From the IMG/VR virus record IMGVR_UViG_3300042973_000021, positions 1-64,000 of that record: a stretch of DNA of 64,000 nt; one strand, written 5' to 3'. This stretch comes from a virus (taxonomy: Duplodnaviria > Caudoviricetes). Numbering within the stretch: position 1 is the stretch's first letter; every line of letters starts with the position of its first letter. The position numbers and the translations under genes were made by a program. The notes under the pieces were generated by a model. It was given only the letters and a program-made list of their open reading frames with translations. It searched no databases and had not been told where the DNA came from. Shown here piece by piece: positions 1 through 59,365 of the stretch.

Positions 1-820
1 CTATATCATTTCTTCAATCTTCACACCTGACTTAAACTCCACCTCAATCCTGTCATCGCGGATCGTAACTTTTTCAATAAGCCGCCTTACCAACTGCTCA
101 TCATACTCCTCTAACTCGTGAGACTGTTCATTTAAGAAAGCAGTCATTTCAGCGATTCGTTGCCTTTTTCCTTCACGCTCGGCATTTTCTACAAGTGAAT
201 TTTGCTTCATCTCCCGAAGGCGGTATATCTCATCAGCAACATTATCGTAGTCATTTTTTGACTTTGCCTGTTTAAGAAGCTCTATCTGCAATTCTTCCAA
301 CTTGCTATCAAGCTCATCCGTATCATTATCACTTTCTTCATTAAATATAGTGTCGATATTTTTCTGTAATGTTGAAAGGAAAGGTTCTTTGTTAGCCAAA
401 AGTTCGTTAATAGCCCTGACCACTGCTGTCTGTAATGTTTCCTCGTTTATGGTAGGGGCAGTGCATTCAGACCCTTTTTCCTCCAATCGGCTAACGCATC
501 TCCAGACAATAGACTTATAGCCTCGGTTATTCCAATGTACCCGTCGGTAAATATCGCCGCAATGACCGCAATAAACAATACTCGATAAAGCATACTTGCT
601 GCTATAAACTCTCTTTTTACCGCCTTTCCCGCCACGAAGATTCGCTCTCCGAACCATCTCTTCTTGAACCTGCATAAAAAGCTCACGTGGAATGATAGGC
701 TCATGGCTGTTTTCCACATAATACTGGGGAACAATGCCGTTATTCTTGACTCGTTTTTTAGAAAGGAAATCAACCGTATATGTTTTTTGTAGAAGGGCAT
801 CACCGATGTACTTTTCATTC
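1..820 (-). pseudogene. 3' half of outer-prophage large serine recombinase, split by insertion of the inner prophage
   Basis: Translation begins NEKYIGDALLQKTYT and contains the Zn ribbon (CGHCG...WRC), coiled coil and C-terminal VEFKSG of LSRs. It lacks the catalytic N-terminus, which lies at 59341..60092 and joins in frame. Confidence 0.95.
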
Positions 821-845
821 ATAAGACTGTCAGTTTTGATACAAT
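795..845. other. Left attachment junction of inner prophage
   Basis: LSR coding sequence ends at ...cttttcaTTC (818-820), followed by arm taagactgtcagttttgatacaat (822-845), an imperfect inverted repeat of 59312-59335. Confidence 0.9.
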
Positions 846-939
846 GTAACGATGAAACTTTCGAGGTCAAAAAAAGTTTCATCGTGTGATTGTGGTTTCA
901 TCGTTTACGAGTGCTGTAATTTCGGTCTTTTTCGGGCAT

Positions 940-972
940 AAAATGAGCCGGGGTTTCATTTTTCCCCGGCTT
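940..972 (-). terminator. Intrinsic terminator after LSR1
   Basis: Stem AGCCGGGG (946-953)/CCCCGGCT (964-971), followed by a T-rich tract on the minus strand. Confidence 0.6.
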
Positions 973-991
973 AATTCATCCCGTTCAGTTT

Positions 992-2557
992 TCAGACAGT
1001 AATCTCCGTCCCGCCTTTGAAGGTAAAGATGACCTTCTTGTCTTTCATCACGGTGACGTGATCGACCAGGCTGCTCCAGAGGTTCTCGTCAAATTCGGAG
1101 ACCACGCCGTCAAGGTTCTGCAGCTCTTGGATAAATTCCTCCATCTGCTTGTCGTTTGCCTTGACGGCGGCTATTCGGTCTGACAGCTCGTCATGCAGTT
1201 TCTTCTGCTCATCGTAGCGGCTGACGAGGCCGTTGTACTTCTCGGCGTAGGCATTCTGGTCCTGCGCCTTGTGCGCGTTCTCGGAAACCGCCTCCTGCAC
1301 CATTTCGGCAAGCAGTGCCATCTCCGTTTCAGCTTCCGTCAGCTGCGTCTCAAGCTCCGAAGTATCGGACACCGCTTCCCGCAAAATCGTCAGGTTTTCG
1401 ATGACCTCGTCCTTGTCGGAAAGCAGTTCACCCAGCGCCTTGACGAACAGCTCTTTAATCTCGTCCTCGGTCAGATGCGGCGTTTCGCACTTCTTTCCTT
1501 TGTACTTGTGGTTGCAGCGCCAGATGACCCGGCGGTACTTGTCCGTGCTGTGCCACACCTTTGAGCCGTAGTACCCGCCGCATTCTCCGCAGATAATCTT
1601 CGAGGAGAAAATGCTCACGCCGCTGTAGTGCTTGCCCTTGCGGCGCTGCACCTCGGCCTGCACCAGCTCCCATGTCCGCTTGTCGATTATTCCATCGTGG
1701 TCATCTTCAACCAGATACTGCGGAATCTCGCCGTTATTTTTAATCTGCTTTTTCGTCAGGAACGACTCGGTGTATTTCTTTTGAAGAAGGGCATTCCCGC
1801 ACATTTTCTCATTTTGCAGGATGTACATGATGTTGTAGGTGTTCCACATGTCCTTGCCCATCGGGCTTTTGACGCCTTTGTCGTACAGGGTATTCGCAAT
1901 GGCCTGAGCGGAATAGCCCTCAAGGAAGAGCTTGTAGATGAGCCTTATGACCTCCGCCTGCTCCGGATTGATGACCGGCTTTCCGTCCTCGCCCTTGTCG
2001 TAGCCGTAGAAGCTTTTCCAAGGCAGGCTGTAGTTGCCGTCCGCAAACGCCTTGCGTCTGCCCCAGGTGGTGTTCTCGGAAATGCTCCGGGATTCTTCCT
2101 GCGCGAGGCTCGACATGATGGTGATAAGCAATTCGCCGCGGGCGTCAAAGGTCCAGATGTTCTCCTTTTCGAAGAAAACCTCCGTGCCGTTTTCCTTCAG
2201 TTTTCGGATTGCCGTAAGTGAATCGACCGTATTCCGGGCAAATCTTGAGATGCTCTTCGTGATGATGAGGTCAATCTTTCCGGCCAGCGCATCGTCAATC
2301 ATGGCGTTGAATCCGGCGCGGTGCTTGGTGGACGTTGCTGAGATGCCTTCGTCCGAGTACATCTTCACGAACTCCCAGTCGTCACGCGAGGCGATGTACT
2401 TGCTGTAGTAATCCATCTGCGCCTCGTAACTCGTCTGCTGTTCCTCGTTGTCCGTTGAAACTCGGGCATAGCCAGCGACCCGGCGCTTCTTCACAGAGCC
2501 AAGCGGCTCCGCCGTCACCCGGCTGATGGTAGCCGGGATTTTCTTTACTTTTGCCAT
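992..2557 (-). CDS. Large serine recombinase (integrase) LSR1
   Basis: YARVST catalytic motif, [10 protein letters not shown], recombinase domain, CGECG Zn ribbon, coiled coil. Adjacent to the att junction. Confidence 0.95.
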   Translation of the reverse strand: MAKVKKIPATISRVTAEPLGSVKKRRVAGYARVSTDNEEQQTSYEAQMDYYSKYIASRDDWEFVKMYSDEGISATSTKHRAGFNAMIDDALAGKIDLIITKSISRFARNTVDSLTAIRKLKENGTEVFFEKENIWTFDARGELLITIMSSLAQEESRSISENTTWGRRKAFADGNYSLPWKSFYGYDKGEDGKPVINPEQAEVIRLIYKLFLEGYSAQAIANTLYDKGVKSPMGKDMWNTYNIMYILQNEKMCGNALLQKKYTESFLTKKQIKNNGEIPQYLVEDDHDGIIDKRTWELVQAEVQRRKGKHYSGVSIFSSKIICGECGGYYGSKVWHSTDKYRRVIWRCNHKYKGKKCETPHLTEDEIKELFVKALGELLSDKDEVIENLTILREAVSDTSELETQLTEAETEMALLAEMVQEAVSENAHKAQDQNAYAEKYNGLVSRYDEQKKLHDELSDRIAAVKANDKQMEEFIQELQNLDGVVSEFDENLWSSLVDHVTVMKDKKVIFTFKGGTEITV

Positions 2558-3765
2558 TTAATCTTCCTCCCGTCCTTAAACTCGAATTCAAGATGATCCT
2601 TGTAAATCCGGAGTTCCTTTATTTCAGCCGTAAACTTGTCTTCGTAATTCTCCTGCCCGAGTACTTCTGCGCAGGCAGCGTCCAGTTTGCTCTTGGCGTA
2701 CCACGGATTGTCGCAGGCATCCTTGCCGTTGGCGTGACGGTTGTTGCAGACGAATGTATACCGCTTTCTTCGGTTGCCCCTGTTGTAAGCTGTGTGCGGT
2801 GCCATCCTGTATCCGCACTCGCCGCAGACGACCTTTCCCAAGAAGCAGGCGCATTCCTCGCTGCGCTGTGTGTTTTTTTTCTTCCGCTCCGCTCTGAGCT
2901 TCTGCACCAGCTCGAATGTCTCAGATGAGATAATCGGCTCGTGATGATTTTCAATCCGGTACATTGCCTTTTCGCCGTGATTGTATTTTTCCTTCTTCGG
3001 CGCGTAGGTATACTGCTTGTGGAAAAGCATGGAACCGGTGTATTCCTCATTTGTCAGCACCCGTATGATTCCGGGAGTAGAGACTGGCTTGCCGCGAAGT
3101 CCGATGAAACCTTCTGCTGCAAGCTCCCTCTGAATGCAGCCGACCGTCTTGCCGTCAATGTAGTCGCTGTAGATCCGGCGGACAACTTCTGCTTCATCCT
3201 CTTTGATGATGAGGTCGTCACCCCTCCAGCGGTAGCCGAGCATGTTCTGGTGCGTATGAACGATGCCGTTCTCGTATTTCTTCTTGATCACCCACTTGAT
3301 GTTCCGCGACAGGCTGCTGCTTTCAGCTTCGGCGAATGACGCGAGGATTGTAAGCATCAGCTCTCCGTCGCCCGACATGGTATTGATGTTCTCGCGTTCG
3401 AAGCGCACCTCAACGCCGATTTCTTTCAGATGCCGAACCGTATCCAGAAGGTCGACGGTATTCCGGGCAAACCGGCTGATGCTCTTGGTCAGCACAATGT
3501 CGATTTTCCCAGCGTCGCAGTCAGCGACCATTCTCTGGAATTCCTTTCTTGCGTCGACGCTCGTGCCCGTGATTCCGGCGTCCGCGTAAACGCCTGCGTA
3601 TTCCCATTCCGGATTGCTCTGAATGAGATTGCTGTAGTAGCTTATCTGAGCCGAAAGGGAATGCATGAGCTGATCTGTCGCTTTAGAGACGCGAGCGTAA
3701 GCTGCGACCTTTTTCCTCGGTCTGACGGCCTGCTCCGACGCCTCAATTTTCTTGATTTTTGGCAT
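2545..3765 (-). CDS. Second serine recombinase LSR2 (406 aa, coiled coil apparently absent)
   Basis: [15 protein letters not shown] and CGECG motifs. The region after the Zn ribbon is short. Confidence 0.9.
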   Translation of the reverse strand: MPKIKKIEASEQAVRPRKKVAAYARVSKATDQLMHSLSAQISYYSNLIQSNPEWEYAGVYADAGITGTSVDARKEFQRMVADCDAGKIDIVLTKSISRFARNTVDLLDTVRHLKEIGVEVRFERENINTMSGDGELMLTILASFAEAESSSLSRNIKWVIKKKYENGIVHTHQNMLGYRWRGDDLIIKEDEAEVVRRIYSDYIDGKTVGCIQRELAAEGFIGLRGKPVSTPGIIRVLTNEEYTGSMLFHKQYTYAPKKEKYNHGEKAMYRIENHHEPIISSETFELVQKLRAERKKKNTQRSEECACFLGKVVCGECGYRMAPHTAYNRGNRRKRYTFVCNNRHANGKDACDNPWYAKSKLDAACAEVLGQENYEDKFTAEIKELRIYKDHLEFEFKDGRKIKWQK

Positions 3766-3801
3766 GTTTCAGCCCTCCTTTCAGCTACCATACATCACTC
3801 T

Positions 3802-3987
3802 TTAGCCCCTGTAAGTCAAGCGAATGTCGGAGAATAATGTGCCGAAAACAGGCTGGTATTTCTCCTGCATTTTTGTATCAAATATGCCATACTGCTCCTC
3901 GGTGATAAGACCTTCCGAGAGCATCTTTCTGGCGTGGCTCATCGTGACTTCGTAGAGCTTTTCCCTTTTCATTTCTTCCTCCGTCAA
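3802..3987 (-). CDS. Small SHOCT-like protein upstream of the recombinases
   Basis: 61 aa, ..KMLSEGLITEEQY.. motif. Homologous to 62128..62358 (KMLEKGLITEVEF) in the outer prophage. Confidence 0.7.
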   Translation of the reverse strand: MTEEEMKREKLYEVTMSHARKMLSEGLITEEQYGIFDTKMQEKYQPVFGTLFSDIRLTYRG

Positions 3988-4391
3988 CGGTACTCACCTC
4001 CGAACCGATCCTCGATGTAGCACTCGTGGCAGCAGTATTTCCGACCGGCGCTCTCATATGCCTTGAATGGCTTATGGCAGTAGGCGCATTCATACGTCCG
4101 CATGGATTTGCGGTTCACCTCGGCGAGATGTTTGTTCCAGTATTTGCTCCGGCAGGTGTCCGAGCAGAACTTCTTCTCCTTGCGTCCGGGATTCTGTATG
4201 ACCTCTTTTCCGCAGAACAGGCAGTGACGGATATCCTGCTTCTCCGCATTGGTTCGCTTTCTCATCAGTCCATTACGGCGGCAGTACGACTTCACCGTTC
4301 CTTCCGATACTCCGATTTCATTCGCAATATCAACGTAGCTGTATCCGTCGTCACGCATGGCCGCTATTTTCATTTTCTGTTCATTCGTCAT
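3984..4391 (-). CDS. HTH plus double Zn-finger protein (candidate regulator or recombination directionality factor)
   Basis: HTH (SYVDIANEIGVSEGTVKSYCRR) and CxxC pairs (CLFC..CSDTC, CAYC..CCHEC). GGAGG RBS before ATG 4391. Confidence 0.75.
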   Translation of the reverse strand: MTNEQKMKIAAMRDDGYSYVDIANEIGVSEGTVKSYCRRNGLMRKRTNAEKQDIRHCLFCGKEVIQNPGRKEKKFCSDTCRSKYWNKHLAEVNRKSMRTYECAYCHKPFKAYESAGRKYCCHECYIEDRFGGEYR

Positions 4392-4431
4392 CGTTTGACC
4401 TCCTAACCGTCTGAGGGTTCTCCCCTTCACC

Positions 4432-4464
4432 GGCTATGTAGCCAAACCGCCTGTTTTTCCGGTC
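4432..4464 (-). promoter_or_regulatory. Phage-specific promoter-like motif, copy 1 (GACCGGAAAA-N7-GTTTGGCTACATAGCC)
   Basis: Same 10-bp and 16-bp boxes and same spacing at 33712-33744 and 33838-33870. Confidence 0.75.
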
Positions 4465-4471
4465 GCAGAGC

Positions 4472-4520
4472 AAAAAAATAGGCCCACCGACAATCCTGAT
4501 AAGGGAATGCCAGTGGGCTA
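4472..4520 (-). terminator. Intrinsic terminator after endolysin
   Basis: GCCCAC/GTGGGC stem followed by a T7 tract on the minus strand. Confidence 0.65.
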
Positions 4521-4535
4521 TAAGATGTGATGAGG

Positions 4536-5495
4536 TTATTTCACGCGAATCCGCCATCCAACCTGGATGAGATTCACGTTCTTGATAAGCGAGCTGTTCA
4601 GCTTCTGGATCGCGGACACAGACGTGCCGTATTTCTTCGCGATGCCGGAGAGCGTGTCACCTCGCTGAACCGTGTAGTAGGTTGCCGTCGTCTTCTTGGC
4701 AGCAGATCCGAGCTTCTCGTTGACCTTCGCCTGCACGGCGCTGTAGTCGTATCCGGCTGCGGTCAGGCGGTTCTTACGGTCGGAGCCGTTGCCCCATTTC
4801 CCGGCGATAACCTCTGAAGCAATCTCATCAACGGACTTCTTCGCGGTTGTGGTCGTCGTGCTGGTGGACGCGGTTCCTTTGCCGTAGCCGTTGAATCCGC
4901 CGCTCCTGATCGTCGCCGGAAAGTCGATGTAGGAGTAGTCCATATCGACGTTCCCGCCGATACCGCTGACCTTGCCTTTGGACGAATACTGCCAGATTCC
5001 GTAAGCGCCGGAGTAGCTGCACTTGCCAGACCACTGCGCCACCCAGACGGTGAAACGCTTCTTCACGGCGTCCGATACCACGGAGTTCAGGCTGGAAAGC
5101 GAGGTGTAGAAACCAGCGTAAAAACCGCGGCTCTCAAGCTCCATGCAGAATGCCGTGATGAGGCTTGAGCAGAAATCCCGTCCCTTGGAAAGCTGCGACT
5201 TCTCCTCGATGTCGAAATAGACCGGATAATCGAGCTGCTTGCCGGAGAGAACCTTGGCGCAAGCCCGCGCTTCCTGCTTCGCTCCGGCGGCGGACGTGGC
5301 GTAGCTGTACCAGTACGCTCCGACGTGAAGCCCTACGGCCTTCGCCTTGCTGTAGTTGCTGTCGAAATACTTGTCCTTGTTTCCGTTTCCGTATCCGGCG
5401 CGGATGATCACGAAATCAATGCCGGATGATTTGACCTTGGCAAAGTCGATATTGTTTCCCTGCCAGACGGATACGTCGATTCCTTTGTATGCCAT
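4536..5495 (-). CDS. Endolysin: GH25 muramidase + Cpl-7-like repeat + LysM
   Basis: [15 protein letters not shown] and VDMD motifs, Thr-rich linker, [13 protein letters not shown] repeat, [13 protein letters not shown] LysM. Confidence 0.92.
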
Positions 5496-5911
5496 TACTG
5501 TTCCTCCTTGTCGTTTCTGTCGTGAAGCTGTTCCAGCACATCTTTGAGCTTGCCGGGTATCGGCAGCCCGAGATGCGCCGCGTTCTCGGTCAGGGACAAG
5601 CCCTCATTACTGATATAGAAAAAGATGATTGCTGTTCTCAGCACGCCCTCGTGGCCGAGTACGTGGATGTCGAGAATATTGGCGATGCCGACCAGAATGA
5701 AGATCAGCACTTTGCGGCAGATGCCCTTGAATCCAACCGCGCTCGAGAGCTTCTTGTCCGCGATGGCGCAGAGCACGCCGGTGATGTAGTCGCAGACCAC
5801 GAAGATGATCAGCGCGATCAGCAGTCCGTCACATCCTCCTAAGAAGTAGCCCAGCCATCCGCCGACTGCGGCGAAGATGAGCTGTATGGTGTTCCAGAAT
5901 TCCTTCATCAA
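5495..5911 (-). CDS. Phage holin (toxin secretion/phage lysis holin family)
   Basis: Transmembrane segments, DYITG and [10 protein letters not shown] motifs. Adjacent to the endolysin. Confidence 0.9.
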
Positions 5912-5994
5912 TATGTCCCTCCTTTGATTTTGGGTAAAAATAAAGGCCGCCAGCTTTGTGCTGACAGCCTTGGAAAACTGTGTGATCTATGAAG

Positions 5995-8475
5995 TTATGA
6001 AGTGTCGGTCTGTTTCGGCAATGCCTCCCAGAGCCTTAAATCCTCCTGTCCGAGCGACCAGATCGCGATTCCGCGGAGTCCCCAGTGGTACGCTGCCTGA
6101 TTCGCCCAGTAGACGAGCGAGTCCACGTCCTGATAGTAGAGGATGGAAAATCCGTCCGCGTCGCCGAGGAAGAGCCGCGATATCCAGATGTCGATGTCCT
6201 TCGGCGTGACCGTAATCGTATAGTCGTTTCCGCATTCGAGGTCGAGCTGCGCGGAGTGGTAGAACTCGTAGTCCATTGAAATGGAGTCGGACCTTGTCGC
6301 GGATTCCTCAATATCCGCAGTCAGCGTGAACACCTGAAACTCCTCGTCCCAGGTGACGTTGCTTCGACTGATTCTGCCGTACTGTGTAACCGAACCGTCC
6401 GGGAAGGTGACATCGAACCGCTCATAAGGCTCATAGGTCCATGCGTCGCCCATACGGAGCAGTTCACAGACTGTTCTCTGGTCGGACTGGTATCCTGCGG
6501 TTCCTCCTGAGAATCCGCTGACCGTCGTCGTGAACCTGAGCGCGTTGGACGCGCCGGAATAGACGCGCACGGTACTGCCTCTGATCCGCATTTCGATGGT
6601 GTAGGTTGTCGGATCAGTTCTCAGATCGGATGATGGCGTCTGCTGAATCGGCTGCGAGTAGCTGCCGAGCTTGGTGCTCCCGTTCCACAGCTCCACGGCC
6701 TGACTGTTGTAGTTCAGGCAGCAGAAAAGACTGCCGCAGAAGATTCCCGCCTTGCCGGTGCTTCCTGCCGGAAACGCGAGACGCGCCCGAAGGTGGATGT
6801 CCTTGAATCCGTCGTAGTTCCACGCAAACTGTCCGCTGCCGTCAAGCTGTGAATAAACGCGGTTCTCGGAATATTCATCCGAACGCCAGACCTTCCACGA
6901 GCCGGATATGATGTTCCAGTACCCGGTGTCGAGCATGCCGTAGTCCTCGAAATCCTCGTACCAGATGAGCGCGGAGTCAGGCTTGCGGCGCAGGACCTCG
7001 GTTGTGAGCTTGAAGCCCTTGTCCGGCTGGCATTCGTTCCCGTCCACGTCGATAAAGTGGCGCGGAGAAAGCATGAATGAAGCAGCTCCGGCGGACGGTT
7101 CCTCACTGAAAGTAGAACAGACACGGAACCCGTAGAACTGCACGCCTTTCACATCAACTGAAACCGTGATTGTGTGTGTTCCGACTGACAGAGATATACC
7201 ATCGGCAAGACTTGCCCAGAAGGTACTGCGCCAGTACGGCCACCAGAGCCGCGACTCGGTGAAATGCTTCTGCGTTCCGTCAATCGACACATAGATGCCG
7301 TTCTTGTCCCAGAAGGGATAGCAGAGCCGGACGGCGATATCATAGGTTCCAGCACTTGAAACCGAAAAGCTGTAGGTTGCTTCGCCCTTGTCGCCCATGA
7401 CCGCGATGCCGTTCTCTGAGGAGACAATGCCAGTGTAGCTATCCGGCGTTCCGTCATGATCCACGTAAATCGTGCCAAACGACGTCTTCTGCGTTTTGCT
7501 GTAGGCGGTGAGGTACCTGCGCCGGTTGTATGTTCCGTCCATCAGCGGATAGTCGTAGCTCGAAGCGTCCTGCCCTTCCGCAAAGTCGTAGACCTGAGGA
7601 AAGGCGTAAGGCACATTGTTGTAGTCGTCCCAGTACGCGAGGATCGGAATGAACGGCTGCGGTGCGGCGTCGTCCGTGAAGTTGTATTTGCCCGTCATCC
7701 AGTTTTTTGCGGCGTAGTAGGTGTTGGACGTTCCGCGATAGCTCTTGCCGAGGTTCTCCGGCGTATCGTAAATCTGCCAGTTCCAGCCGTAAGCCGGAAG
7801 TCCCATGAACACCTTGTCCGGCTTCATCGCGGTGACCACGTAATCGTATATGCCGTCAAGCCAGTCCTTCGGAGAGACAGGCCCCGGAGCGCTTCCGGCC
7901 CACGCCATTCCATAACTCATTATGGCCGCGGTATTGCAGTATGGGTTCAGGTCGGCATATACGCACCAGTTCTCTCCGCCGACCGAGCCGTTGACAGAGT
8001 TCATTCCGGGAAGACAGATGTTGACCTTCTTCGAAGAATCGTAGTCTTTGACTGCGTTCCAGATGTTGCGGAACATGGCTGTGGATTTTGCGTGCGTGGA
8101 GTAATCGCCACCTCGCTCAAGGTCGATGTCGACTCCAGCGCACCACGGATACTTCTCCATGATCCGCACCAGCTCGGTGAGGAACTTATCCTGCGCTCCG
8201 TCGGTATTCTCCCGGAGAGCTGTGAAGACGCTTGATGTGCCGTCGTTGCGGACCGTTAGCAGCCATGTGATGTGCGGATACTTATTGATATACGTCAGCA
8301 TGTCGCTGATGGCCACGCCGGATTCGGTTATCGTTCCGGTCGCGTCGACCTTAAAAGAAAAGAGACCTACCTGCGAGAGGCGGTCTCCGTAATTCTTCAG
8401 CGCGGTGTACATGCGGGCATTTCCCATGAACGTCCAGACCATGCACTTGCGGCCTTTGAGAATATCCAGACTCAT
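5995..8475 (-). CDS. GH18 glycoside hydrolase with inserted beta-sandwich domains (probably tail-associated)
   Basis: GVDIDLE (DxDxE) catalytic motif, IMSY, MGLPAYG and C-terminal GIAIWSLGQED. Confidence 0.85.
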   Translation of the reverse strand: MSLDILKGRKCMVWTFMGNARMYTALKNYGDRLSQVGLFSFKVDATGTITESGVAISDMLTYINKYPHITWLLTVRNDGTSSVFTALRENTDGAQDKFLTELVRIMEKYPWCAGVDIDLERGGDYSTHAKSTAMFRNIWNAVKDYDSSKKVNICLPGMNSVNGSVGGENWCVYADLNPYCNTAAIMSYGMAWAGSAPGPVSPKDWLDGIYDYVVTAMKPDKVFMGLPAYGWNWQIYDTPENLGKSYRGTSNTYYAAKNWMTGKYNFTDDAAPQPFIPILAYWDDYNNVPYAFPQVYDFAEGQDASSYDYPLMDGTYNRRRYLTAYSKTQKTSFGTIYVDHDGTPDSYTGIVSSENGIAVMGDKGEATYSFSVSSAGTYDIAVRLCYPFWDKNGIYVSIDGTQKHFTESRLWWPYWRSTFWASLADGISLSVGTHTITVSVDVKGVQFYGFRVCSTFSEEPSAGAASFMLSPRHFIDVDGNECQPDKGFKLTTEVLRRKPDSALIWYEDFEDYGMLDTGYWNIISGSWKVWRSDEYSENRVYSQLDGSGQFAWNYDGFKDIHLRARLAFPAGSTGKAGIFCGSLFCCLNYNSQAVELWNGSTKLGSYSQPIQQTPSSDLRTDPTTYTIEMRIRGSTVRVYSGASNALRFTTTVSGFSGGTAGYQSDQRTVCELLRMGDAWTYEPYERFDVTFPDGSVTQYGRISRSNVTWDEEFQVFTLTADIEESATRSDSISMDYEFYHSAQLDLECGNDYTITVTPKDIDIWISRLFLGDADGFSILYYQDVDSLVYWANQAAYHWGLRGIAIWSLGQEDLRLWEALPKQTDTS

Positions 8476-9053
8476 ATCACATCACCATCCTCCATCTCCT
8501 GAAACTCCACATACAGCCGTGCCGACTTCTTCTCCTCGACAGTCACCGGGTGCTTGCTGTCGCCCGCGGCGGAGTACTGGAAGAAGCCGTCTTTGTTTGT
8601 GGCAGTTCCGTTTTTCAGGCACTTTCGGCTTGAAGCGAGAATGTCAAGTTCGTCGCCAGCTTTCGCGGAATCCGTGAATGTTGCCTTGTGCGCTCCGGCA
8701 CCGAGGGCAAGTGAAACGCTCCCGGCTTTCATGTTTTGATTCGGATAAATCTTCCAGTCAAGTCCGGTCGATGTCTTGCCGAGGTTGAAGATGATGCAGG
8801 TCGCGCTGCCGCGTACGATGCCGTTGAAGAACCGTTTTCCCGTGACTGCGTATTCGTCGCCGGTAGCGTACTTCTTTTGCGTTGTCTCGGTGTTAACGAC
8901 ATACCCGGACAGCATTGCGCCTTCCTGCAGCATGAGGTCGGTGAACCAGACGGTTCCAGTGCAGTTGGCGACCATCAGCTTGACAGTGACGCTGACAACT
9001 CGTTTCTTTTCCTTCTTATCAATCGTTTCTGTAAAGCGTGTGAATATCAGCAT
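8472..9053 (-). CDS. Hypothetical tail-region protein
   Basis: 193 aa from ATG 9053. N-terminus is paralogous to 9055..9249. Confidence 0.7.
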   Translation of the reverse strand: MLIFTRFTETIDKKEKKRVVSVTVKLMVANCTGTVWFTDLMLQEGAMLSGYVVNTETTQKKYATGDEYAVTGKRFFNGIVRGSATCIIFNLGKTSTGLDWKIYPNQNMKAGSVSLALGAGAHKATFTDSAKAGDELDILASSRKCLKNGTATNKDGFFQYSAAGDSKHPVTVEEKKSARLYVEFQEMEDGDVI

Positions 9054-9054
9054 A

Positions 9055-9249: not shown

Positions 9250-9259
9250 AGCAGCCTCC

Positions 9260-10633: not shown

Positions 10634-10637
10634 GCAA

Positions 10638-15397: not shown

Positions 15398-15415
15398 GCG
15401 GATTCCTCCTTCCCA

Positions 15416-46340: not shown

Positions 46341-46354
46341 AAGCTTCGCCTCCT

Positions 46355-49807: not shown

Positions 49808-49871
49808 GAAAGAGTCCTCTCTTAGTTCTACTCTGTATAACTTCTGCCAGCCAAATCAAAGATTTGGGGCA

Positions 49872-52800: not shown

Positions 52801-53387
52801 TCTCTTGTCTCCACCCACGGAGCGCCGTTCTTTTCTTCAAACACACGGCGGAATTCTTCTGTCTTTCCCTGTTTTGCGACGAACTGCTCCAGCTTTGCCA
52901 CCTTCAGGTCCTCCCCGAGAAAGCCGAGATGGTTATAGAACATCTTCGCAAAAACCTTCAGCACAGCGGTATTGTCCTTATTGCTGAAGCCTTCAATATC
53001 GATATTGAAAAGGATTGTCTCCGTCGGTGCCTTCGTCGCCTTGTCGATCAGCATGAAGGTGGCCGGATCATCCGCAAATTTCTTGCGGAACCGCTCGACC
53101 GTAGACATGCCGTTGATGGTCCTGTTTTCCAGAATATAGGAGAGCATCTTCAAGAAGTGAGATTTACCACTTCCAAAGAAGCCGGAAATCCAGACGCCGA
53201 TATCCGCTGTCGGCGTATCAAAAGCGTCGTCGTAATAATTGAAGAAGGTAATGAAATGCCGCTTCAATTCGCGCGTAATGACATACTCGTTTAATTCCTG
53301 CTCGGTTGTCGTGTCTTCCTGGTCTACTTTGATGACACCATTTATTTTTCGGTTGATGTCATCGACAAACATGTCCTGAATTCTCAT
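49872..53387 (-). CDS. brxC: BREX ATPase BrxC
   Basis: INGVIKV, WISGFFGSGKSH, VDEVGQY and YPFVPYQ motifs. Confidence 0.95.
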   Translation of the reverse strand: MRIQDMFVDDINRKINGVIKVDQEDTTTEQELNEYVITRELKRHFITFFNYYDDAFDTPTADIGVWISGFFGSGKSHFLKMLSYILENRTINGMSTVERFRKKFADDPATFMLIDKATKAPTETILFNIDIEGFSNKDNTAVLKVFAKMFYNHLGFLGEDLKVAKLEQFVAKQGKTEEFRRVFEEKNGAPWVETRESFGFFEDDVVETLEEVLGMSETAARNWFNGTETAEISIAQLVSEIKDYVNSKPKNFRLLFMVDEVGQYVGTDTNLLLNLQSLVEKVGSECGGKVWIVCTGQEAIDEIIKVRMDEFSRIQARFKTRLSLSSSAVDEVIQKRLLTKKSEAKTVLTDLYERNDYVLKNLFSFTDSVLDIKGYSGPEEFVVNYPFVPYQFILIQKIFSEIRKHGAAGKHYSGAERSMLDGFQIVAKSIEDKDEHAIAPLYPFYDSVHSFLDGSIRRVIERCQKAADNHDGIEDYDVKVLKLLYLIRYIDDVKANLDNIVILMSDDIRTDKIELRQTVQKSLDRLKSQNYIDRRGDAYIFLTDEEQDIARDIANTSVDTAKIVERIGQMIFGDIYTQKKYRYGKYDFPFDEMVDSTSIGAVTGGMTLRFLTVATDVTDKQELRLMTESKGAAIVVLADTPYYESLENAMKIRKYVKQRNVNQLAKSVQDIIRDQQDEAGKYETSAKEELEKAIAGAEFYVDGEHIEIKSGTPVSKIDQALEYLVAHVYSELDLITKNAETDADIIEILRGTNPEMAGMENNRDAAAKVEEYLEMQSMKKLPTSMDDIQTRYQKIPYGWKEIDIAAVVALLIYQQKVTIKYGGAQIRPDNPKLPDMLRKKTERGKAMISMKQSASAQKMKAAKEIMREYFDIMDVPDDQDALVKLILDKFKDQKQHYEELNSRYAGHKYPDHDKVTAAIKLMDDVLSQEKDDIALIDRLVADETKLFDSKDDMQPVEAFFKNQVTVFDSAVKMEADLRNDLPYIQKDEETNEALNQIRKITLVNGSNPAVYRQIPELNGLMDKVRAGHNKLLEEKRADLLEIVRQCLAEIHQAAGEGGEFRNVIEKADNYFTQMKSQIATTRTIVLLDGMTTQMWNYKDDTVAAIESAKKPKKPVKPVQPDQPKKHIKNCYRQAIFKQATLESEDDVNDYVERMRSYLNALLKDCDGIKLN

Positions 53388-53400
53388 TTGGCGGCTCCTC

Positions 53401-53961
53401 CTATATCACATTGAACGCCCTGTAATAAGGGTTCGGTTTTAATCGGTCAAACAGCTTCACATGCCTTCCGTCGAATGTTCCCGGATACATTACGAGAATC
53501 GGAACACCGCCGACTCTCGGCTGCAGGGCTTCCAGAAGCATATGGATACGCATGAATGGGAACACATCACCCACACCTGTCAGAAGCAGAACATCTCCCT
53601 TTTCCGGCGGCGTGCTGCAGATCTTATCTACATAGGCCTGCACATTGATGGATTTTTCGATCATCTTCTGCAGCTGATCCTTCCCGCGCTTTTTCTCCTG
53701 ATCTGCCATGCGGGAAAGAATCCTCTTGTCCTCACAGCACTGCAGGAAGATCTCATATAAATTATTTTCTTTCAGACGGCACGGCAGTGTCTGGTCTGTT
53801 AGAATCTGCCGCACGAAGTGACGGACACGCATTTCATCCCTCGCTTCATAGCAGAACATCCTGATATTTACTTCGTTGGACAAGCCGTTTCCTTCCAGAA
53901 AATCCGGGTCCTTCAGGAGATCACGCACCCTGTCCAGACGTTCATCTATATTTCCTTCCAT
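53401..53961 (-). CDS. brxB: BREX protein BrxB (DUF1788)
   Basis: GLSNEV, LTGVGDVFPFMR, MYPG and YYRAF motifs. Confidence 0.92.
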   Translation of the reverse strand: MEGNIDERLDRVRDLLKDPDFLEGNGLSNEVNIRMFCYEARDEMRVRHFVRQILTDQTLPCRLKENNLYEIFLQCCEDKRILSRMADQEKKRGKDQLQKMIEKSINVQAYVDKICSTPPEKGDVLLLTGVGDVFPFMRIHMLLEALQPRVGGVPILVMYPGTFDGRHVKLFDRLKPNPYYRAFNVI

Positions 53962-53969
53962 GTTTCCTC

Positions 53970-54599
53970 CTACGACAGGCAGTTGAAGGCTGGCAGAGCC
54001 TCCGTCGTCCCGTCGTTCCTGATCGCGTTTTCAAGTACCGGGCTAATCAGCACCGGATTCAGATGATCCGCCTTCGTGCTGTCCAGATATTCATTCTCTA
54101 CGAGTGTTTTCGTCAGCACCTGCCGAACCTTCGTAATAGTGGAATCACTCCACGTGGCCACCCAGTCGTCCTGCTCCTGCAGCCGCATGAAGAATGTGTT
54201 CAGATCCACCCTGCCGAACGAGCTGTCGAGTTTCTGATATTTCTCTCCGATGACCGTCAGCATAAAGTCCCATACCAGACGGTACTGCCGCATCATGGCA
54301 TACAGACAGATCTGCTTTGCCACATCACTCGGCTGCGTCGCAATGGCCGTAACAAGCGAATCGTCCTCCATTGCTTCAAGCCTCCGGATGCAGGCAAGCG
54401 CCATCTTACGGACGGACTTTTCCGTCGGATACTGAAACAGATTCTCCGACACGATGTGTTCAACCACAGCATCCTTATCAAGCCCGTCGTTTACGAGCTT
54501 TGCCGTAGTACGCATTTCATAAAACAAAAACTGTTCCCGCGTAATCGCGGCATTATAAGGACTGGCTTCTTTGAGTGCCTTGTTTGTACTTTGCGGCAT
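53970..54599 (-). CDS. brxA: BREX protein BrxA (DUF1819)
   Basis: EQFLFYE, ENLFQY and WSDSTITK motifs. First gene of the BREX order. Confidence 0.9.
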   Translation of the reverse strand: MPQSTNKALKEASPYNAAITREQFLFYEMRTTAKLVNDGLDKDAVVEHIVSENLFQYPTEKSVRKMALACIRRLEAMEDDSLVTAIATQPSDVAKQICLYAMMRQYRLVWDFMLTVIGEKYQKLDSSFGRVDLNTFFMRLQEQDDWVATWSDSTITKVRQVLTKTLVENEYLDSTKADHLNPVLISPVLENAIRNDGTTEALPAFNCLS

Positions 54600-54843
54600 T
54601 CTTCTTTTCCTCCGGTTTATTGGCGGCTCCCTTTTCATCATCATCCGGAACCGTTTCTACAATTTCATTAATATTGCAGTTCAATGCTTCGCAGATCTTC
54701 AAAAGCACATCGGTCGTCAGGTTTTCGCCTTTGCCGAGCTTCGCAAGGGAAGCTGTGCTGATCCCACTTAATTCCCGCAAATCCTTCTTTGACATTTCCC
54801 GTTTTGCAAGTATTACCCATAAGGGTCTGTAACTGATACGCAT
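54553..54843 (-). CDS. XRE/Cro-like HTH regulator
   Basis: ISYRPLW..MSKKDL..GISTASLAKLGKGENLTTDVLLKICEAL. GGAGG RBS. Confidence 0.85.
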   Translation of the reverse strand: MRISYRPLWVILAKREMSKKDLRELSGISTASLAKLGKGENLTTDVLLKICEALNCNINEIVETVPDDDEKGAANKPEEKKNAAKYKQGTQRSQSL

Positions 54844-54859
54844 ACGCACCTCCATCAGT

Positions 54860-56575
54860 TTATTTCTCGTCATCCTCTGACGGCACTTCGCCCGACTCGT
54901 TTTCTGTCTTCTTAGCCCATGACCATCCGAACAGCTCTCCGCCATCGCTATGAAGTTCGATCACGCGGGTATCGTAGACTGTCTTTGCTGTATATTCCGT
55001 AAACGCCTTATGCTTATCGAACGATATGAAGACCTGCTTCCCGCTGTTCACGTAGAGCTGCATGATCTTATCAATCGGCAGGTCAGCTATGTTCTTGAAG
55101 ATCAGGGAGTCATGAACGATAAACGGAAGCTCCGTAGTCTTGAATACACTCAGGTCAAAAATGATGAGATTCTTATAATTTTCTCCTGTGCCAGAATTCC
55201 AGTCACAGCCGAATGTATATTTCGGATTTCCATTCTTTGCATCTGAGAATTTAATCTCAGGAGCATACTGTTTTCCATCGTATATAAAGTCGTTCATCCG
55301 GACCATTTCCTGATTGATTATGGTCTGAATGGTATCCAGCTGGCTCTTTCTGGCATCCTCCATGCGGGTCTTGGCGTCTTTAGTCTCATTGGCAAGTTTC
55401 TGGGATTCATCATATCCTTCATTCTGCGTTTTCAGGAAATTGATCCTGCTGCGCAGCCGGACCGTTTCATCCAGAAACTTCTTCGAGACATGTGTCGGAA
55501 CACCAAGCTTACGCTGTTCTTCCTCCAGCCGCTGCATTTCCTTCGTAGATTCAGCGATGAGAGCTTCCAGCCTCTGTACTTCTTCCGACATCTCATCCGT
55601 CAGGATGGTCTGCATCTTCTTATGGAAATGTTCGATGGTTTCGAGCTTTTCAATATCGGCGTCAGGGAAGAACTCCCGAAGGTCCTGAATATCGTCGGAT
55701 GTTGGCGTCAGGCCTTCCTCAAGGTTTGCCTTGACGGCATTCAGCTGCGATACGAGCCTTGTTCTGCGCCGCTTAAGGACAGTGATCTGTCCCTTGATTT
55801 CCGCTGCCTTATCAAGCTGAGCGGTATCCGCCTCCGCGAGAGAACTGTCTTCTTTATCAAGAAGCTCCTCCAGCTGCTTTTCGAGTTCTTCGATTTCCTT
55901 GGTATTGGCCTTGACCTGTTTCTTCGTCCTCGCAACGGTTACAATTTCTCCCAGATTGGTGGCGGTTATTCTGACGGTTTTGCGTTTGTTCTTTGCTTTG
56001 TAGAAATCCTCATACTCCTTCACAAGGTCATAAACGCCGTAGATCTGCTCCAGCGCCTTAATCGCATCCGCATCCGGCTCTTTGCCATATTGCAGCGGAA
56101 ACTCCTCGCTGTAATTATGCCTGCCGTAGATTCTCGCGAAGCGTCCTACCAGGCTGCGCCAGCTGCACTGCGCTGTCTGAATTTGATAGGAGGCAAAGAG
56201 ATGATCCTGAAAATCAGTCAGCGGCATCGGATCGCCGATCTCGTTATAATTCTCATCGCATATACTGACATGAGTAGGGTCCAGCGTGCTTCTGGAATAA
56301 TACTCGATACGCTCTCCAAACTTGAAAGCGAACTTGATGACGTGGTTTCCGACAAATTTGACTACGTTATTTTTTGTTTTCTCACTGTCCAGATAATCGC
56401 CGCCGCCAAAGCAGAAATCCACTGCCAGAAGAAAAGTGGATTTTCCGATGGAGTTTTCACCCTGCTTATCGCCAAGGACAGTGTTCAGACCCGGTCGGAA
56501 CCTAATCCGTCCTCTCGGGACACGCTGCCCGTTTATGGTTTCAGCGAACTGGTCGCATTCTATTTCATACAACAT
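54860..56575 (-). CDS. SMC-like ABC ATPase (DUF2326; ABC-three-component/Lamassu LmuB-like)
   Basis: NSIGKST Walker A, long coiled coil, SGTGE signature, FIVHDS Walker B. Confidence 0.85.
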   Translation of the reverse strand: MLYEIECDQFAETINGQRVPRGRIRFRPGLNTVLGDKQGENSIGKSTFLLAVDFCFGGGDYLDSEKTKNNVVKFVGNHVIKFAFKFGERIEYYSRSTLDPTHVSICDENYNEIGDPMPLTDFQDHLFASYQIQTAQCSWRSLVGRFARIYGRHNYSEEFPLQYGKEPDADAIKALEQIYGVYDLVKEYEDFYKAKNKRKTVRITATNLGEIVTVARTKKQVKANTKEIEELEKQLEELLDKEDSSLAEADTAQLDKAAEIKGQITVLKRRRTRLVSQLNAVKANLEEGLTPTSDDIQDLREFFPDADIEKLETIEHFHKKMQTILTDEMSEEVQRLEALIAESTKEMQRLEEEQRKLGVPTHVSKKFLDETVRLRSRINFLKTQNEGYDESQKLANETKDAKTRMEDARKSQLDTIQTIINQEMVRMNDFIYDGKQYAPEIKFSDAKNGNPKYTFGCDWNSGTGENYKNLIIFDLSVFKTTELPFIVHDSLIFKNIADLPIDKIMQLYVNSGKQVFISFDKHKAFTEYTAKTVYDTRVIELHSDGGELFGWSWAKKTENESGEVPSEDDEK

Positions 56576-56792
56576 AGCGCAGTACTTCCTCATTTTCGTC
56601 GTATTCAATCTTTCTAAGTGCATATAAGCAGTCGAGCACATCTATGAATTCATTTACGCCGTCCATCTTCTTTATCACGCGCCGGTACAGCTCATGCACG
56701 CTTAAAGGCTCTTTCCGCAGTTCCTTCAGCACGACAGGGAACTTGGAAAGTGTGCTCTCGTTATATGAGTAAAGCTTATTCGGCAATAACAT
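56565..56792 (-). CDS. ABC-three-component middle component (LmuC-like)
   Basis: 75 aa LPNKLYSYNES..LDCLYAL..I, coupled between effector and ATPase. Confidence 0.75.
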   Translation of the reverse strand: MLLPNKLYSYNESTLSKFPVVLKELRKEPLSVHELYRRVIKKMDGVNEFIDVLDCLYALRKIEYDENEEVLRYVV

Positions 56793-57912
56793 CGAATGCC
56801 TCACATTTCTGCGTGAAATATGCGATGACGATCTCGCAGTCACGCCATTTTTCATTTGTTGCGTCATACAGCCACTTCGTCATCTCATAAAAGATCTGGT
56901 CCTGACTGTATCCCTTATCTCGGAAACTCACATACATATACCGAACCTGCTGGCAGAACGGATTAAACCGCAGCTTGCCCTCACGCCCCATCTCCTGAAA
57001 GACCTCATGGACGTCATTGAAATAAACATTCACATCTGTCTTGATACGAAGATACAGTGCAAAATCGCTTATTTTCTGTTTCACAGGAACCGGATCGTAA
57101 TTCAGGTCAATATCTGTGGGAGGCGTGATGAAAGGGATCTTTTCTATTACGCGCCGGACGCCTTCCTGCACATGTTGATCGGCTCGAATTTCCTGATCTT
57201 CATGAGCATTGATTAGAGACTCCTTTATTTCCATCATCCGGGAAATATCATCAGGAGTCTTAAGAGCAGCGTACTTTGCCGCGCATTCCGGGCAAAGCGC
57301 GATTAGATTGGATGGCTCATTGGAAGAATTGCTCGGATCAATAACTGCGACGTCATAGATCAGCTCGGTATGTCCGTCACGGTATGTAAAAAGTGATTTC
57401 TGGCATCCGTCATTTGGGCATACACTTCCGGTTTCTGCAACGAGGCCTATACCGTATTTTTCTTTCAATGTTGCCATCTGAATGGCAGGGACACCGCCGC
57501 TTGTTGCTGCAAGGGTGGTGTCTTTTGTTTTTGGTGCAGCCGCATGGTCGATGATGTCCTTGAACCGAGCTGCTATGCATGAGCAGTAATTACTGCTGTC
57601 AATGTCAGGAAACCACGGCTTAAACGAATCAAAGAGATACTCAATCGTGTCATCGGAATCCGTCTGAATGTATTTAGCAAAATTCCCGGTATCGAGAGAG
57701 CCGGAAATCTTGGAGGCGAGTTCCGATATGTCATTCTGTCCGTAGTAGTAGGCCTTATAAGTCCGTGGCAGGGTTTCATCAACGGGATCGTCTTCAGATT
57801 CTGGCAAATAGATCTTTTCAAATAATTCTTTGGCAAAAACCTCAACTTTTCTGTTCCGCCGATACTTCGTCGAAAGCAGCTTCGCGAAGATTTCGAATTC
57901 AGTATCTGCCAA
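56776..57912 (-). CDS. ABC-three-component effector (N-terminal domain + degenerate HNH/Zn module + C-terminal domain; LmuA-like)
   Basis: TTG start after GGAGG. CPNDGC..NLIALCPEC module and C-terminal CEIVIAYFTQKCEAF. Confidence 0.75.
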   Translation of the reverse strand: MADTEFEIFAKLLSTKYRRNRKVEVFAKELFEKIYLPESEDDPVDETLPRTYKAYYYGQNDISELASKISGSLDTGNFAKYIQTDSDDTIEYLFDSFKPWFPDIDSSNYCSCIAARFKDIIDHAAAPKTKDTTLAATSGGVPAIQMATLKEKYGIGLVAETGSVCPNDGCQKSLFTYRDGHTELIYDVAVIDPSNSSNEPSNLIALCPECAAKYAALKTPDDISRMMEIKESLINAHEDQEIRADQHVQEGVRRVIEKIPFITPPTDIDLNYDPVPVKQKISDFALYLRIKTDVNVYFNDVHEVFQEMGREGKLRFNPFCQQVRYMYVSFRDKGYSQDQIFYEMTKWLYDATNEKWRDCEIVIAYFTQKCEAFDVIAE

Positions 57913-57937
57913 TAGAGATCCCTCCTTCCATGCGTAC

Positions 57938-57967
57938 ATGTACGGTCATGTACAGTCGTGTACTCTC
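57938..57967. repeat. Three tandem 10-bp imperfect repeats (putative operator)
   Basis: ATGTACGGTC / ATGTACAGTC / GTGTACTCTC. Confidence 0.65.
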
Positions 57968-58050
57968 GGGAGCGGTGAAAAATGCCGTTTCCCGTATACT
58001 CAAGATACAGGAAGGAGATGAACCGTCCGACATGAAACCGATGCTATTTA

Positions 58051-58079
58051 ATTTTACCACAGTTTCGCACGATGGTCAA
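58051..58079 (-). promoter_or_regulatory. SigA-type promoter of the defence operon
   Basis: TTGACC-17 bp-TAAAAT with extended -10 TG on the minus strand. Confidence 0.75.
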
Positions 58080-58139
58080 TCTTAAATTCGTCATCGCAAA
58101 TTATTTTACAGCGATGCAACAATTTATTCATTTCCTGTA

Positions 58140-58370
58140 ACGCGTCCCGAGCACGACGTTAAAAGGCTCTCCTGAACCTGACTCACCTTCTTCGTGGCCA
58201 CGAGGTGTGTTCGTAGTCAGGCGATGGAAAGACAAATGAATAGAGTGCCAGCTTACGAACGGCTGGTCACCGAAATGAGGCGGAGCAATCCGCATGAGGT
58301 GACCGACGATGTCTAACACAACTGGCAGCCATATGGGTGGTCTCCGCCTCGGTTTGAAAACCGAAAGGAG
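58140..58370 (+). ncRNA. Candidate structured RNA leader
   Basis: Multiple exact helices, two potential pseudoknots and a GCAA tetraloop upstream of the sigma-like gene. Family not identified. Confidence 0.5.
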
Positions 58371-58379
58371 ATCGCTTAT

Positions 58380-59033
58380 ATGGCAATCAAAGACAACAAC
58401 TGGAAATCTTACAATGACGCGCCGCTGAAGGATGGCGAGGTTCTCGTACCTCAGCTGGTAAGCAAGGAGTACGCAATGGGCCTCAAGGCCAATATGTCGA
58501 ACCTGAGAACGTGGGAAAAAAGCGGCATCAGTTATCTGGTGATGTTCATCCCGGTGCCAAAAGATCAGGAGAAGCAGGCATGGTCTATCTTCAATGTTGA
58601 GGTGAACGAACTTCTCGATGAGAAGCTCGGGCCGAACAGATTCAGCCGTTGCATGGTCCCGCAGCCGGATGGCAGCAAGAATCCCTGCCCGAAGAAAAAT
58701 GGCAATAATCATGAATGCTGTGCCAACTGCCCGTTCCGTAATATTTACGAGAAGGAAGATCGCAGCATGGTGTACTGGAGTCAGCTTGAGGAAACCGAAT
58801 ATGCTGGAGGCGTTGAATCTCACGCCGATGATGATTATAAGGTCGAGGCCCTTCTGGAAGACCTGATCAACGAACTTGAACAAAAGAATCCGAAGCTCGC
58901 ACGTATCGTCACTCTCGGTTACGCCGGGTACAGCAAGGCAGAAATCTTCGAAATGATCGGCGTTCAGAAGACGCAGGGATATGACCTGTTCAAAGAAGCC
59001 GAACGTCTGACGAAGGAGTTCCTGTTCGACTAA
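58380..59033 (+). CDS. Sigma-70 region 4-like phage transcription factor with Cys-rich insert
   Basis: RC..CP..CCANCP Zn motif and C-terminal HTH (GYSKAEIFEMIGVQKTQGYD). AAGGAG RBS. Confidence 0.7.
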   Translation: MAIKDNNWKSYNDAPLKDGEVLVPQLVSKEYAMGLKANMSNLRTWEKSGISYLVMFIPVPKDQEKQAWSIFNVEVNELLDEKLGPNRFSRCMVPQPDGSKNPCPKKNGNNHECCANCPFRNIYEKEDRSMVYWSQLEETEYAGGVESHADDDYKVEALLEDLINELEQKNPKLARIVTLGYAGYSKAEIFEMIGVQKTQGYDLFKEAERLTKEFLFD

Positions 59034-59063
59034 TCGCTGAATTGAGATAATCTGTGCTGATTG

Positions 59064-59112
59064 GGCCGGATGCCTGACGCTGCGAAAGCGGCTGACGGTG
59101 TCCGGCCTTTTC
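59064..59112 (+). terminator. Terminator after the sigma-like gene
   Basis: GGCCGGA/TCCGGCC stem followed by TTTT. Confidence 0.6.
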
Positions 59113-59311
59113 TGTACCCGTACCCATAAACGATAGGCATACAATCACACGGTAAAAGGCTATCGTGTGATTATGGTTTCATTTCGCTTTCCTGACGCTC
59201 CGGACGTAAAAAGAGCAGCGGCTCAGACACATTCAATCTGAATACCGCTGCCGCTAAAAACCGCAGAAACGCTTGATTTGTCGGTGTTTTTCACATATAT
59301 GCTATCGCTTG

Positions 59312-59365
59312 ATTGTATCAAAATCGCGAGTCTTAGGTTCTGCAATATCTTTTTCAGTGTTTCTG
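59312..59365. other. Right attachment junction of inner prophage
   Basis: Arm attgtatcaaaatcgcgagtctta (59312-59335), core TTC (59338-59340), then LSR coding sequence resumes. Confidence 0.9.

Follow-up and report, generated by a model that had tools for sequence, protein, structure and literature searches.

A prophage inserted in the serine recombinase gene of another prophage: probable use of integrase genes as attachment sites

The IMG/VR provirus record IMGVR_UViG_3300042973_000021 has a length of 162,082 bp, and its first 64 kb (positions 1 to 64,000, hereafter the window) contain one prophage inside another. The inner prophage, A, is 58,520 bp long (821..59340, minus strand), is bounded by attL and attR, and interrupts the gene for a large serine recombinase (LSR) of 523 amino acids (aa) that belongs to an outer prophage, B. 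The junctions of A and of its relatives in public genomes and metagenomes suggest, with a probability that we put at about 0.88, that A is a temperate siphovirus whose LSR system uses the N-E-K-Y-x-G-D motif encoded in the LSR genes of other mobile elements as its attB. Two serine recombinases are encoded next to attL: LSR1, a full-length LSR of 521 aa (992..2557, minus strand), and LSR2, a shorter protein of 406 aa (2545..3765, minus strand) whose gene overlaps that of LSR1 by 13 nucleotides (nt).

The interrupted gene and the attachment sites

The window starts at the stop codon of the gene for the 523-aa LSR, where the IMG/VR provirus record is cut, and both parts of this gene lie on the minus strand. 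The C-terminal part (1..820; Asn252 to the stop, 272 codons) carries, according to Pfam, the remaining half of the Recombinase domain together with the zinc ribbon and the C-terminal region. The N-terminal part (59341..60092; residues 1-251) carries the catalytic Resolvase domain and the first half of the Recombinase domain, and as annotated it runs on into phage DNA to give an open reading frame (ORF) of 289 aa (59223-60092). The Recombinase profile is thus divided between the two pieces, with positions 1-49 in the first part of the gene and 51-101 in the second. Joined on the minus strand with a shared TTC counted once, the pieces form 1572 nt, that is 523 codons with one terminal stop; 10-38 stops appear if the join is shifted by 1 or 2 nt. 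The restored junction, K-I-L-Q-N-E-K-Y, aligns without gaps with an intact paralogue of 524 aa elsewhere in the record. An earlier note on this DNA had proposed that a 1572-nt LSR ORF is rejoined at the shared TTC through these residues, and the joined frame bears this out.

The same junction also exists in an uninterrupted form. A 24-mer spanning the join has an exact match in 19 other IMG/VR contigs, 15 of which contain an uninterrupted full-length LSR ORF; in two the ORF runs off the contig end and in two it has an internal stop. The LSR proteins of these contigs are 89-99.8% identical to the joined product, and four contigs match the join exactly across the 99 nt compared around the junction. 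This natural sequence is the empty attB of the joined LSR gene. The site is occupied in one of the 20 close homologues of the target LSR of the window found in IMG/VR. An exact protein look-up of the 293-aa ORF containing the C-terminal fragment returned no record. Two close homologues of the target, L264 (position 10266) and L271 (IMG/VR 3300006439), have an in-frame TAA at the Tyr codon of their relatives and are pseudogenes; they were rejected as a further split site, the frame being broken by a nonsense codon instead of an insertion. Loci at which the match was longer than the gene were likewise discarded as insertions in LSR genes, since the cases inspected proved to be adjacent LSR genes merged into one match.

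The shared TTC lies at 818..820 at attL and at 59338..59340 at attR, with the crossover dinucleotide TT at 818-819 and 59338-59339, respectively; at attL it is read on the coding strand as the AA of the Asn codon. The P arm of attP (ATTGTATCAAAACTGACAGTCTTA; 822..845, minus strand) and the P' arm (ATTGTATCAAAATCGCGAGTCTTA; 59312..59335, plus strand) differ only within a block of 5 nt, at four of its five bases. The window contains no match of this kind besides these 24-nt arms, and chance alone would be expected to yield 0.01. Combined, the ends of A read arm-GG-TT-CA-arm', a symmetric attP with the TT as its centre of symmetry. The features of a serine integrase site are all present: an attP of about 50 bp, inverted arms, a 2-bp crossover, and attL and attR that share only the core. 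The overlap reads TTC in the window; the related junctions of contigs L007 and L254 have TTT, and only TT is shared by both. A natural attP junction, consisting of the P arm, AA and the P' arm, is found in the complete genome CP173227.1. This junction, together with the arm search, confirms the symmetric attP with 24-bp arms, a 5-bp block and a central TT that had been predicted from the letters of the window.

Both arms are strongly conserved. The P arm is the same in 12 other attL or attP junctions, L007 differing by one base in the arm and two bases adjacent to the core, and the P' arm is the same in 11 other attR junctions. An exact search of IMG/VR with a 25-nt version of the attL arm gave no match, and a 19-nt version matched L007 only. 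As LSR1 ends with its stop at position 992 and the crossover is at 818-819, attP is situated 171 nt downstream of the stop, and LSR1 stays intact when the phage is integrated.

Short repeats accompany the arms. Three copies of GTTTCATCGT / AACGATGAAAC are found just inside attL (848..905) and repeats of the ATCGTGTGATT type just inside attR (59139-59172); in a related element, L170, GTTCATCGTTA repeats lie beside the arm in the same place (L170:5640-5740). An accessory or regulatory protein encoded in the integration module may bind to these repeats.

Recombinase genes as a recurrent target

Exact copies of the LSR1 protein occur in about 173 blocks of the public collection, and copies of the 217-aa protein encoded beside attR in 53 blocks. 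The exact-protein index was far more productive in finding LSR1 than similarity scans, in which metagenomes gave no LSR1 relatives above about 60% identity and genomes gave only L087. Two sets of junctions were compared. The attL-side set (n=13) consists of ten places listed for the exact LSR1 protein, the window, L007 and L087; the attR-side set (n=12) consists of ten places listed for the 217-aa protein, the window and L254.

On the attL side, 11 of the 13 junctions lead into LSR C-terminal fragments that start at the Asn of N-E-K-Y; among the ten listed places there are eight such fragments from this Asn, the attP junction of CP173227.1 and one non-LSR gene, in CP174369.1. On the attR side, all 12 junctions, including the ten listed places, follow LSR N-terminal fragments that end just before the codon for this Asn. 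Clustered at 90% identity, the C-terminal fragments form seven groups, which share 28-64% identity with one another; among the N-terminal fragments seven types can be distinguished, with mutual identities of 40-63%. After allowing for pairs that could match, at least nine different LSR genes have been used. Within a three-gene module, either the first LSR or the last one can be split. One contig, Ga0455770_00053, contains both junctions, separated by about 59 kb. The same junction geometry is repeated in more than 20 independent assemblies, among them three complete genomes and a long-read metagenome-assembled genome (MAG). A misassembly at the junctions of the window is therefore very unlikely.

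Several of these cases deserve description. L007 encodes a homologue of LSR1 with 93% identity; downstream, this is flanked by the C-terminal portion of another LSR, which begins at the same Asn. L254, another contig from the same sample, shows the attR side, with an LSR N-terminal fragment ending directly before that Asn. An intact copy of the attB rebuilt from L254 and L007 was not found in IMG/VR, so that the two contigs are tied by their shared sample and their matching halves only. L087, from a long-read MAG of the Anaerovoracaceae, encodes an LSR1 homologue of 99.8% identity; its nucleotide identity to the window ends 35 nt past the junction and is followed by a third LSR beside a truncated hsdM. 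In this locus (L087:2600-6026) the split LSR is the last gene before the truncated hsdM (first 206 residues) and hsdR. The outer element of L087 thus seems to have entered hsdM, which triplet serine-integrase elements are known to target. The right end of the phage is absent from the MAG bin of L087.

The earlier note had placed the target in the NEKY codons of LSR genes in related prophages and had suggested examining whether close LSR1 homologues are flanked by split LSR genes or by unrelated genes. The flanks favour the former and support LSR genes as a regular attB. The restriction to related prophages does not hold, since some targets belong to elements that adjoin MazF/ABC-3C genes, a rumA-type gene or hsdM; several have no obvious prophage around them.

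Two genomes present particular arrangements. In CP174369.1 (L278/L288), a secondary site is used in a gene for a 689-aa protein with GH43_C, Big_2 and Laminin_G_3 domains, the local sequence of which mimics the LSR motif: it encodes N-V-T-Y-K-G and keeps the conserved bases of the half-site. In CP173227.1 (L275/L276, ~1810434-1882942), the block from the lysin to LSR1, with at least 7 kb upstream of it, is present twice, 50,943 bp apart. The duplicated block includes trpD/G/E and mnmA; the attP junction follows one copy, and attL follows the other. The arrangement resembles a tandem dimer formed by a rearranged element in which the virion genes have been lost.

The alignment of the occupied targets gives an indication of how the site may be read. 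The crossover AA represents the first two bases of the Asn codon and is therefore found in every LSR that retains this Asn. Across the seven target types the 3' half-site, AA YGARAARTACAWSGGYGAYGCCCT, is strongly conserved; it is the coding sequence of N-E-K-Y-x-G-D-A-L. The 5' half-sites of the targets have little in common beyond AT and T. Since the 3' half is conserved and the 5' half shares so little, recognition appears to proceed mainly through one half-site, the 3' one. Relative to the target gene, the insert is oriented the same way in every case, as expected for a non-palindromic core. In a sequence search of the PDB for the NEKY motif, the alignment obtained covered the catalytic domain only, and weaker matches, to SprA (YokA), extended across the motif.

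A scheme of integration can be proposed from these observations. LSR1, probably with LSR2 (which of the two acts we infer), would recombine the symmetric attP with an attB located where a resident LSR gene encodes its Recombinase domain. The attB would be the conserved N-E-K-Y-x-G-D motif, with the AA of the Asn codon as a 2-bp crossover that stays invariant while the Asn is kept. The 3' half-site, fixed by the protein motif, would provide the main recognition, the 5' half being weakly conserved. Because recognition would rest on this motif-fixed half-site, the LSR genes of resident prophages and islands would offer a portable landing site independent of the host. Integration would split the resident LSR into a catalytic N-terminal fragment and a DNA-binding C-terminal one, and the split LSR would presumably lose its function, with a possible effect on the excision of the outer phage. 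Since serine recombination is conservative, excision of the inner phage would restore the gene exactly.

The targeted motif has changed in the LSR of the phage itself. In an alignment of 196 distinct LSR1 relatives, Tyr occupies the fourth position of the motif in all but three (as NEKY, NERY, NETY and one QEKY). Only the three NEKY-targeting LSRs (3/196) have NEKMCG in place of NE[KRT]Y.G; in LSR1 of the window the motif reads NEKMCGN. This substitution may protect the gene of the phage from being used as a site.

Insertion of LSR elements in LSR genes is not limited to A, since other LSR clades also adjoin LSR fragments. These clades (L037-L043, L102 and L223-L229; L170/L171; L176) share 54-59% identity with LSR1, and behind them lie fragments of different LSR genes, starting at about residue 93, 98 or 68, as seen on the attL side only. 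A second clade, 54% identical to LSR1, occupies at least six different LSR genes, in each at the G-K-I-D-L motif (about residue 93); from one case to the next the phage side of the junctions does not change, and divergence sets in precisely where the target side begins. This clade is described from its attL side, because a Resolvase-domain search of the record of L038 for an N-terminal fragment gave only a truncated C-side piece. Two further elements lie at about residues 98 and 68 of LSR genes. At the motif position concerned, Leu (GRLDL versus GKIDL) is present in seven relatives, six of which are the second clade. Own-motif substitutions at attacked motifs are thus suggestive of self-protection; no statistic is attached to them, because each motif change is a single evolutionary event. 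In the tree, the residue-252, -93 and -98 clades fall within one clade of 21 tips, which also contains relatives with a non-LSR downstream flank, such as a truncated hsdM.

The nested prophages and the fate of the resident recombinase

Insert A carries full virion, lysis, replication and integration modules and is a siphovirus prophage. Its integration module has four genes, all on the minus strand: an HTH protein (3984-4430), a SHOCT_2 protein (3802-3987), LSR2 and LSR1. The upstream HTH and SHOCT_2 genes are candidates for a recombination directionality factor. Almost all relatives of LSR1 have an LSR2-like gene upstream. PF00239, PF07508 and PF13408 are present in each of LSR1, LSR2, the joined outer LSR and a 530-aa LSR of B; DUF4368 had no Pfam match in LSR1. 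The lysis genes (4536..8475, minus strand) encode an endolysin with GH25, CW_7 and LysM domains (4536-5495), a holin (5495-5911) and an 826-aa protein with a GH18 domain (5995-8475). The virion module (8472..22993, minus strand) encodes tail proteins, Dit/Tal, a protease, the tape measure protein (12542-15397), the major tail protein (15958-16593), the major capsid protein (17999-19219), the portal (19966-21306) and the large terminase (21386-22993). Replication and modification functions (25385..38426) comprise a ParB-methylase, an SNF2 helicase, a D5-type primase, a DUF2800 nuclease and a family A DNA polymerase. No relaxase or conjugation domains were found among about 38 inner ORFs scanned.

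A defence cargo of about 20 kb (38470..57939, minus strand) lies beside attR. It comprises an AbiA-type HEPN protein (38470-39660), a complete type 1 BREX system of six genes running from BrxL to BrxA (41596-54644; BrxA, BrxB, BrxC, PglX, PglZ and BrxL) and an ABC-3C pair of DUF2326 and CTD11 proteins (54860-57939). The GC content falls to 0.40-0.45 across this region. The related phage of L254 has a different cargo up to about 1 kb from attR.

The outer prophage, B, has an integration module composed of an intact 530-aa LSR (60510-62102, minus strand), a 137-aa protein with a Recombinase domain only and no catalytic domain (60096-60509, minus strand), and the split 523-aa LSR. The same three-gene layout is found in a third prophage of the record, where it is intact, and also in L254 and L291. 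Next to this module (62128..64000, minus strand) lie genes for a SHOCT_2 protein (62128-62373), an amidase (62490-63191) and a holin (63191-63658) and the start of the gene for a GH18 protein. The GH18-holin-lysin-SHOCT-LSR layout that had been noticed in both phages is accordingly upheld for A and B by domain annotation. B runs on to about 100 kb of the record and has its own terminase, portal, capsid, tape measure, tail endopeptidase and GH18 protein. The region outside the window that bears on its right boundary is G000:C1:100432-118518, the boundary itself being only approximate; an hsdM fragment was searched for at the right end of B and none was found.

The third prophage, C (G000:C1:121379-162082, outside the window), has an intact module of LSR524, a 140-aa protein and LSR512. 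The 3' half-site of LSR524 has two mismatches in its first 21 nt relative to the occupied attB, yet is empty. Just before the LSR module of C, also outside the window (G000:C1:118734-121159), a 1.2-kb unit is duplicated in tandem with 97.9% identity, and the sole product encoded by each unit is a 314-aa Resolvase+Recombinase protein that lacks a zinc ribbon. The whole record contains seven LSR-type genes. A, B and C are related, with aa identities of 70-76% for the terminase, 79-81% for the portal and 57-87% for the capsid protein; between A and B these values are 76%, 79% and 59%.

Several observations weigh against the use of LSR genes by A as its attB. Neither the attP junction pattern nor a free circular phage contig with attP was found in IMG/VR. 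One junction, that of CP174369.1, falls outside LSR genes. The high variability of the 5' half-site leaves part of the specificity unexplained. The count of 3 in 196 is not an independent statistic, the motif change of LSR1 being a single evolutionary event. Finally, A, with 58.5 kb, is about 15 kb longer than its relative B, and its full packaging is not certain.

What the insertion means for the resident element can be understood in different ways. LSR genes could serve merely as a safe harbour, being common, conserved and dispensable for the host, and the effect on the resident would then be incidental, with no regulatory or competitive role. We give this interpretation an even chance. Elements with serine integrases commonly target widespread dispensable genes, such as rumA, hsdM, mutT or the traG of another integrative and conjugative element (ICE) (PMC4701971). 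Neighbouring LSR clades adjoin other genes, for example a truncated hsdM, which makes target switching look ordinary. The low occupancy of the target of the window, just one of 20 close IMG/VR homologues, also speaks for it. The interpretation does not account for the unique change that the LSR of the phage shows precisely at the targeted motif, even if self-protection would be needed here too. Moreover, the presence of related clades at three or four positions of LSR genes suggests repeated selection for this class of target.

Alternatively, the insertion could reflect a conflict with a hierarchy of excision, in which the inner phage, by splitting the resident integrase, blocks or delays the excision of its competitor. 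The competitor would recover its recombinase only once the inner phage has left, and this would set the order of exit. This would amount to active lysogeny acting on another phage, and we consider it a tentative possibility. The split parts the catalytic half from the zinc ribbon and C-terminal region, and precise excision would rebuild the gene. The inner and outer phages of the window are relatives that would compete for the same host, and an outer phage leaving first would presumably carry about 100 kb, too much to package. The protected motif of the targeting phage also fits the logic of an arms race. However, the outer module keeps an intact 530-aa LSR with its 137-aa partner, a further contig has the split in the first, not the last, LSR of its triplet, and several targets are outside obvious prophages. 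A broader speculation, which we find rather doubtful, is that lineages of LSR phages specialize in the integrase genes of other elements, attacking them at residues ~68, 93-98 and 252, render their own genes immune by motif changes and control the exit of the resident, as a form of excision warfare with an order of release.

A chance insertion at a secondary site, an assembly chimera or homologous recombination between paralogous LSR genes is highly improbable: the seven LSR-type genes of the record could promote rearrangement and one pseudo-site insertion exists, but the recurrence of the junction geometry in more than 20 assemblies, an overlap of 2-3 bp flanked by attP-type arms and lying outside extended homology, and an identity of only 41% between LSR1 and its target all argue against it.

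If A does use LSR genes as its attB, its landing pad moves with other mobile elements, independently of the host lineage. A travelling landing pad may explain why an identical recombinase is found in many assemblies with varied neighbouring genes; at least three complete bacterial genomes carry phage A, and in CP020705.1 and CP173227.1 it occupies an LSR gene. The prophage-prophage interaction is now directly testable: is the outer element locked in, and which of the two exits first? For annotation, a 'truncated recombinase' beside a prophage can be one half of a live attB. For genome engineering, LSR1 would represent a natural LSR that reads a half-site encoded by a protein motif and leaves the second half-site almost free.

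Relation to known systems

Gene-splitting LSR prophages and nested elements of Firmicutes are already established; the use of integrase genes as a regular attB has apparently not been described, as far as we found, a full-text literature search having returned no published account of an integrase gene family serving as attB for another integrase. The best-known prophages that interrupt a gene by means of an LSR are phi10403S/A118 of Listeria in comK, SPbeta in spsM (with SprA), skin in sigK and gin in gerE. In these systems, restoration of the host gene serves the physiology of the host; in active lysogeny, excision takes place on the demand of the host and does not lead to lysis. As in these cases, the LSR of A puts a prophage into a coding gene, with a short core and a symmetric attP around a 2-bp crossover, and as in prophages with active lysogeny an interrupted gene has an ORF that precise excision would rebuild. 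Unlike them, A targets no host gene but an LSR gene that belongs to a different mobile element, and it uses many divergent members of this family.

The nested ('Matryoshka') ICEs as well as integrative and mobilizable elements (IMEs) of Firmicutes offer a second parallel, as their serine integrases target genes of other elements; ICEs with triplet integrases, for example, insert in traG (PMC4701971; PMC9585547). The targets listed for triplet serine integrases are hsdM, mutT and traG (Ambroset et al. 2016, PMC4701971). Common to these elements and to A are site-specific insertion in a conserved gene of another element and two or three co-oriented serine recombinase genes, and hsdM and rumA are used by neighbouring elements here too. 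In contrast, the reported targets of nested ICEs and IMEs are conjugation or host genes, whereas here they are integrase genes, and the insert is not an ICE or IME but a complete phage with terminase, portal, capsid, tail and lysis genes.

Attachment sites within the element's own integrase gene are found in archaeal viruses of the SSV type, in Mx8 and in rumA-targeting streptococcal ICEs (PMC4701971). There, as here, an integrase gene is split or altered and is complete in one state only. Those elements split their own gene, whereas A splits the gene of a different element, and its crossover is outside the LSR1 ORF.

Finally, the LSR survey of Durrant et al. 2022, as represented by its text and text-form supplementary files, includes Mg-chelatase, prolyl isomerase and competence genes among the targets, contains no mention of recombinase genes as targets, and classifies an LSR as multi-targeting if it has more than three target clusters at 50% identity (PMC10083194). 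By this rule an LSR1-type recombinase would be misfiled as multi-targeting. Like the multi-targeting LSRs described in that text, LSR1 represents one LSR cluster found in several target gene clusters with a conserved core dinucleotide, and as in its prolyl isomerase and Mg-chelatase cases, distant LSRs converge on one conserved coding motif. Unlike the multi-targeting class as it is defined there, LSR1, though it would be scored as a member, appears to be specific for one protein motif within a divergent family.

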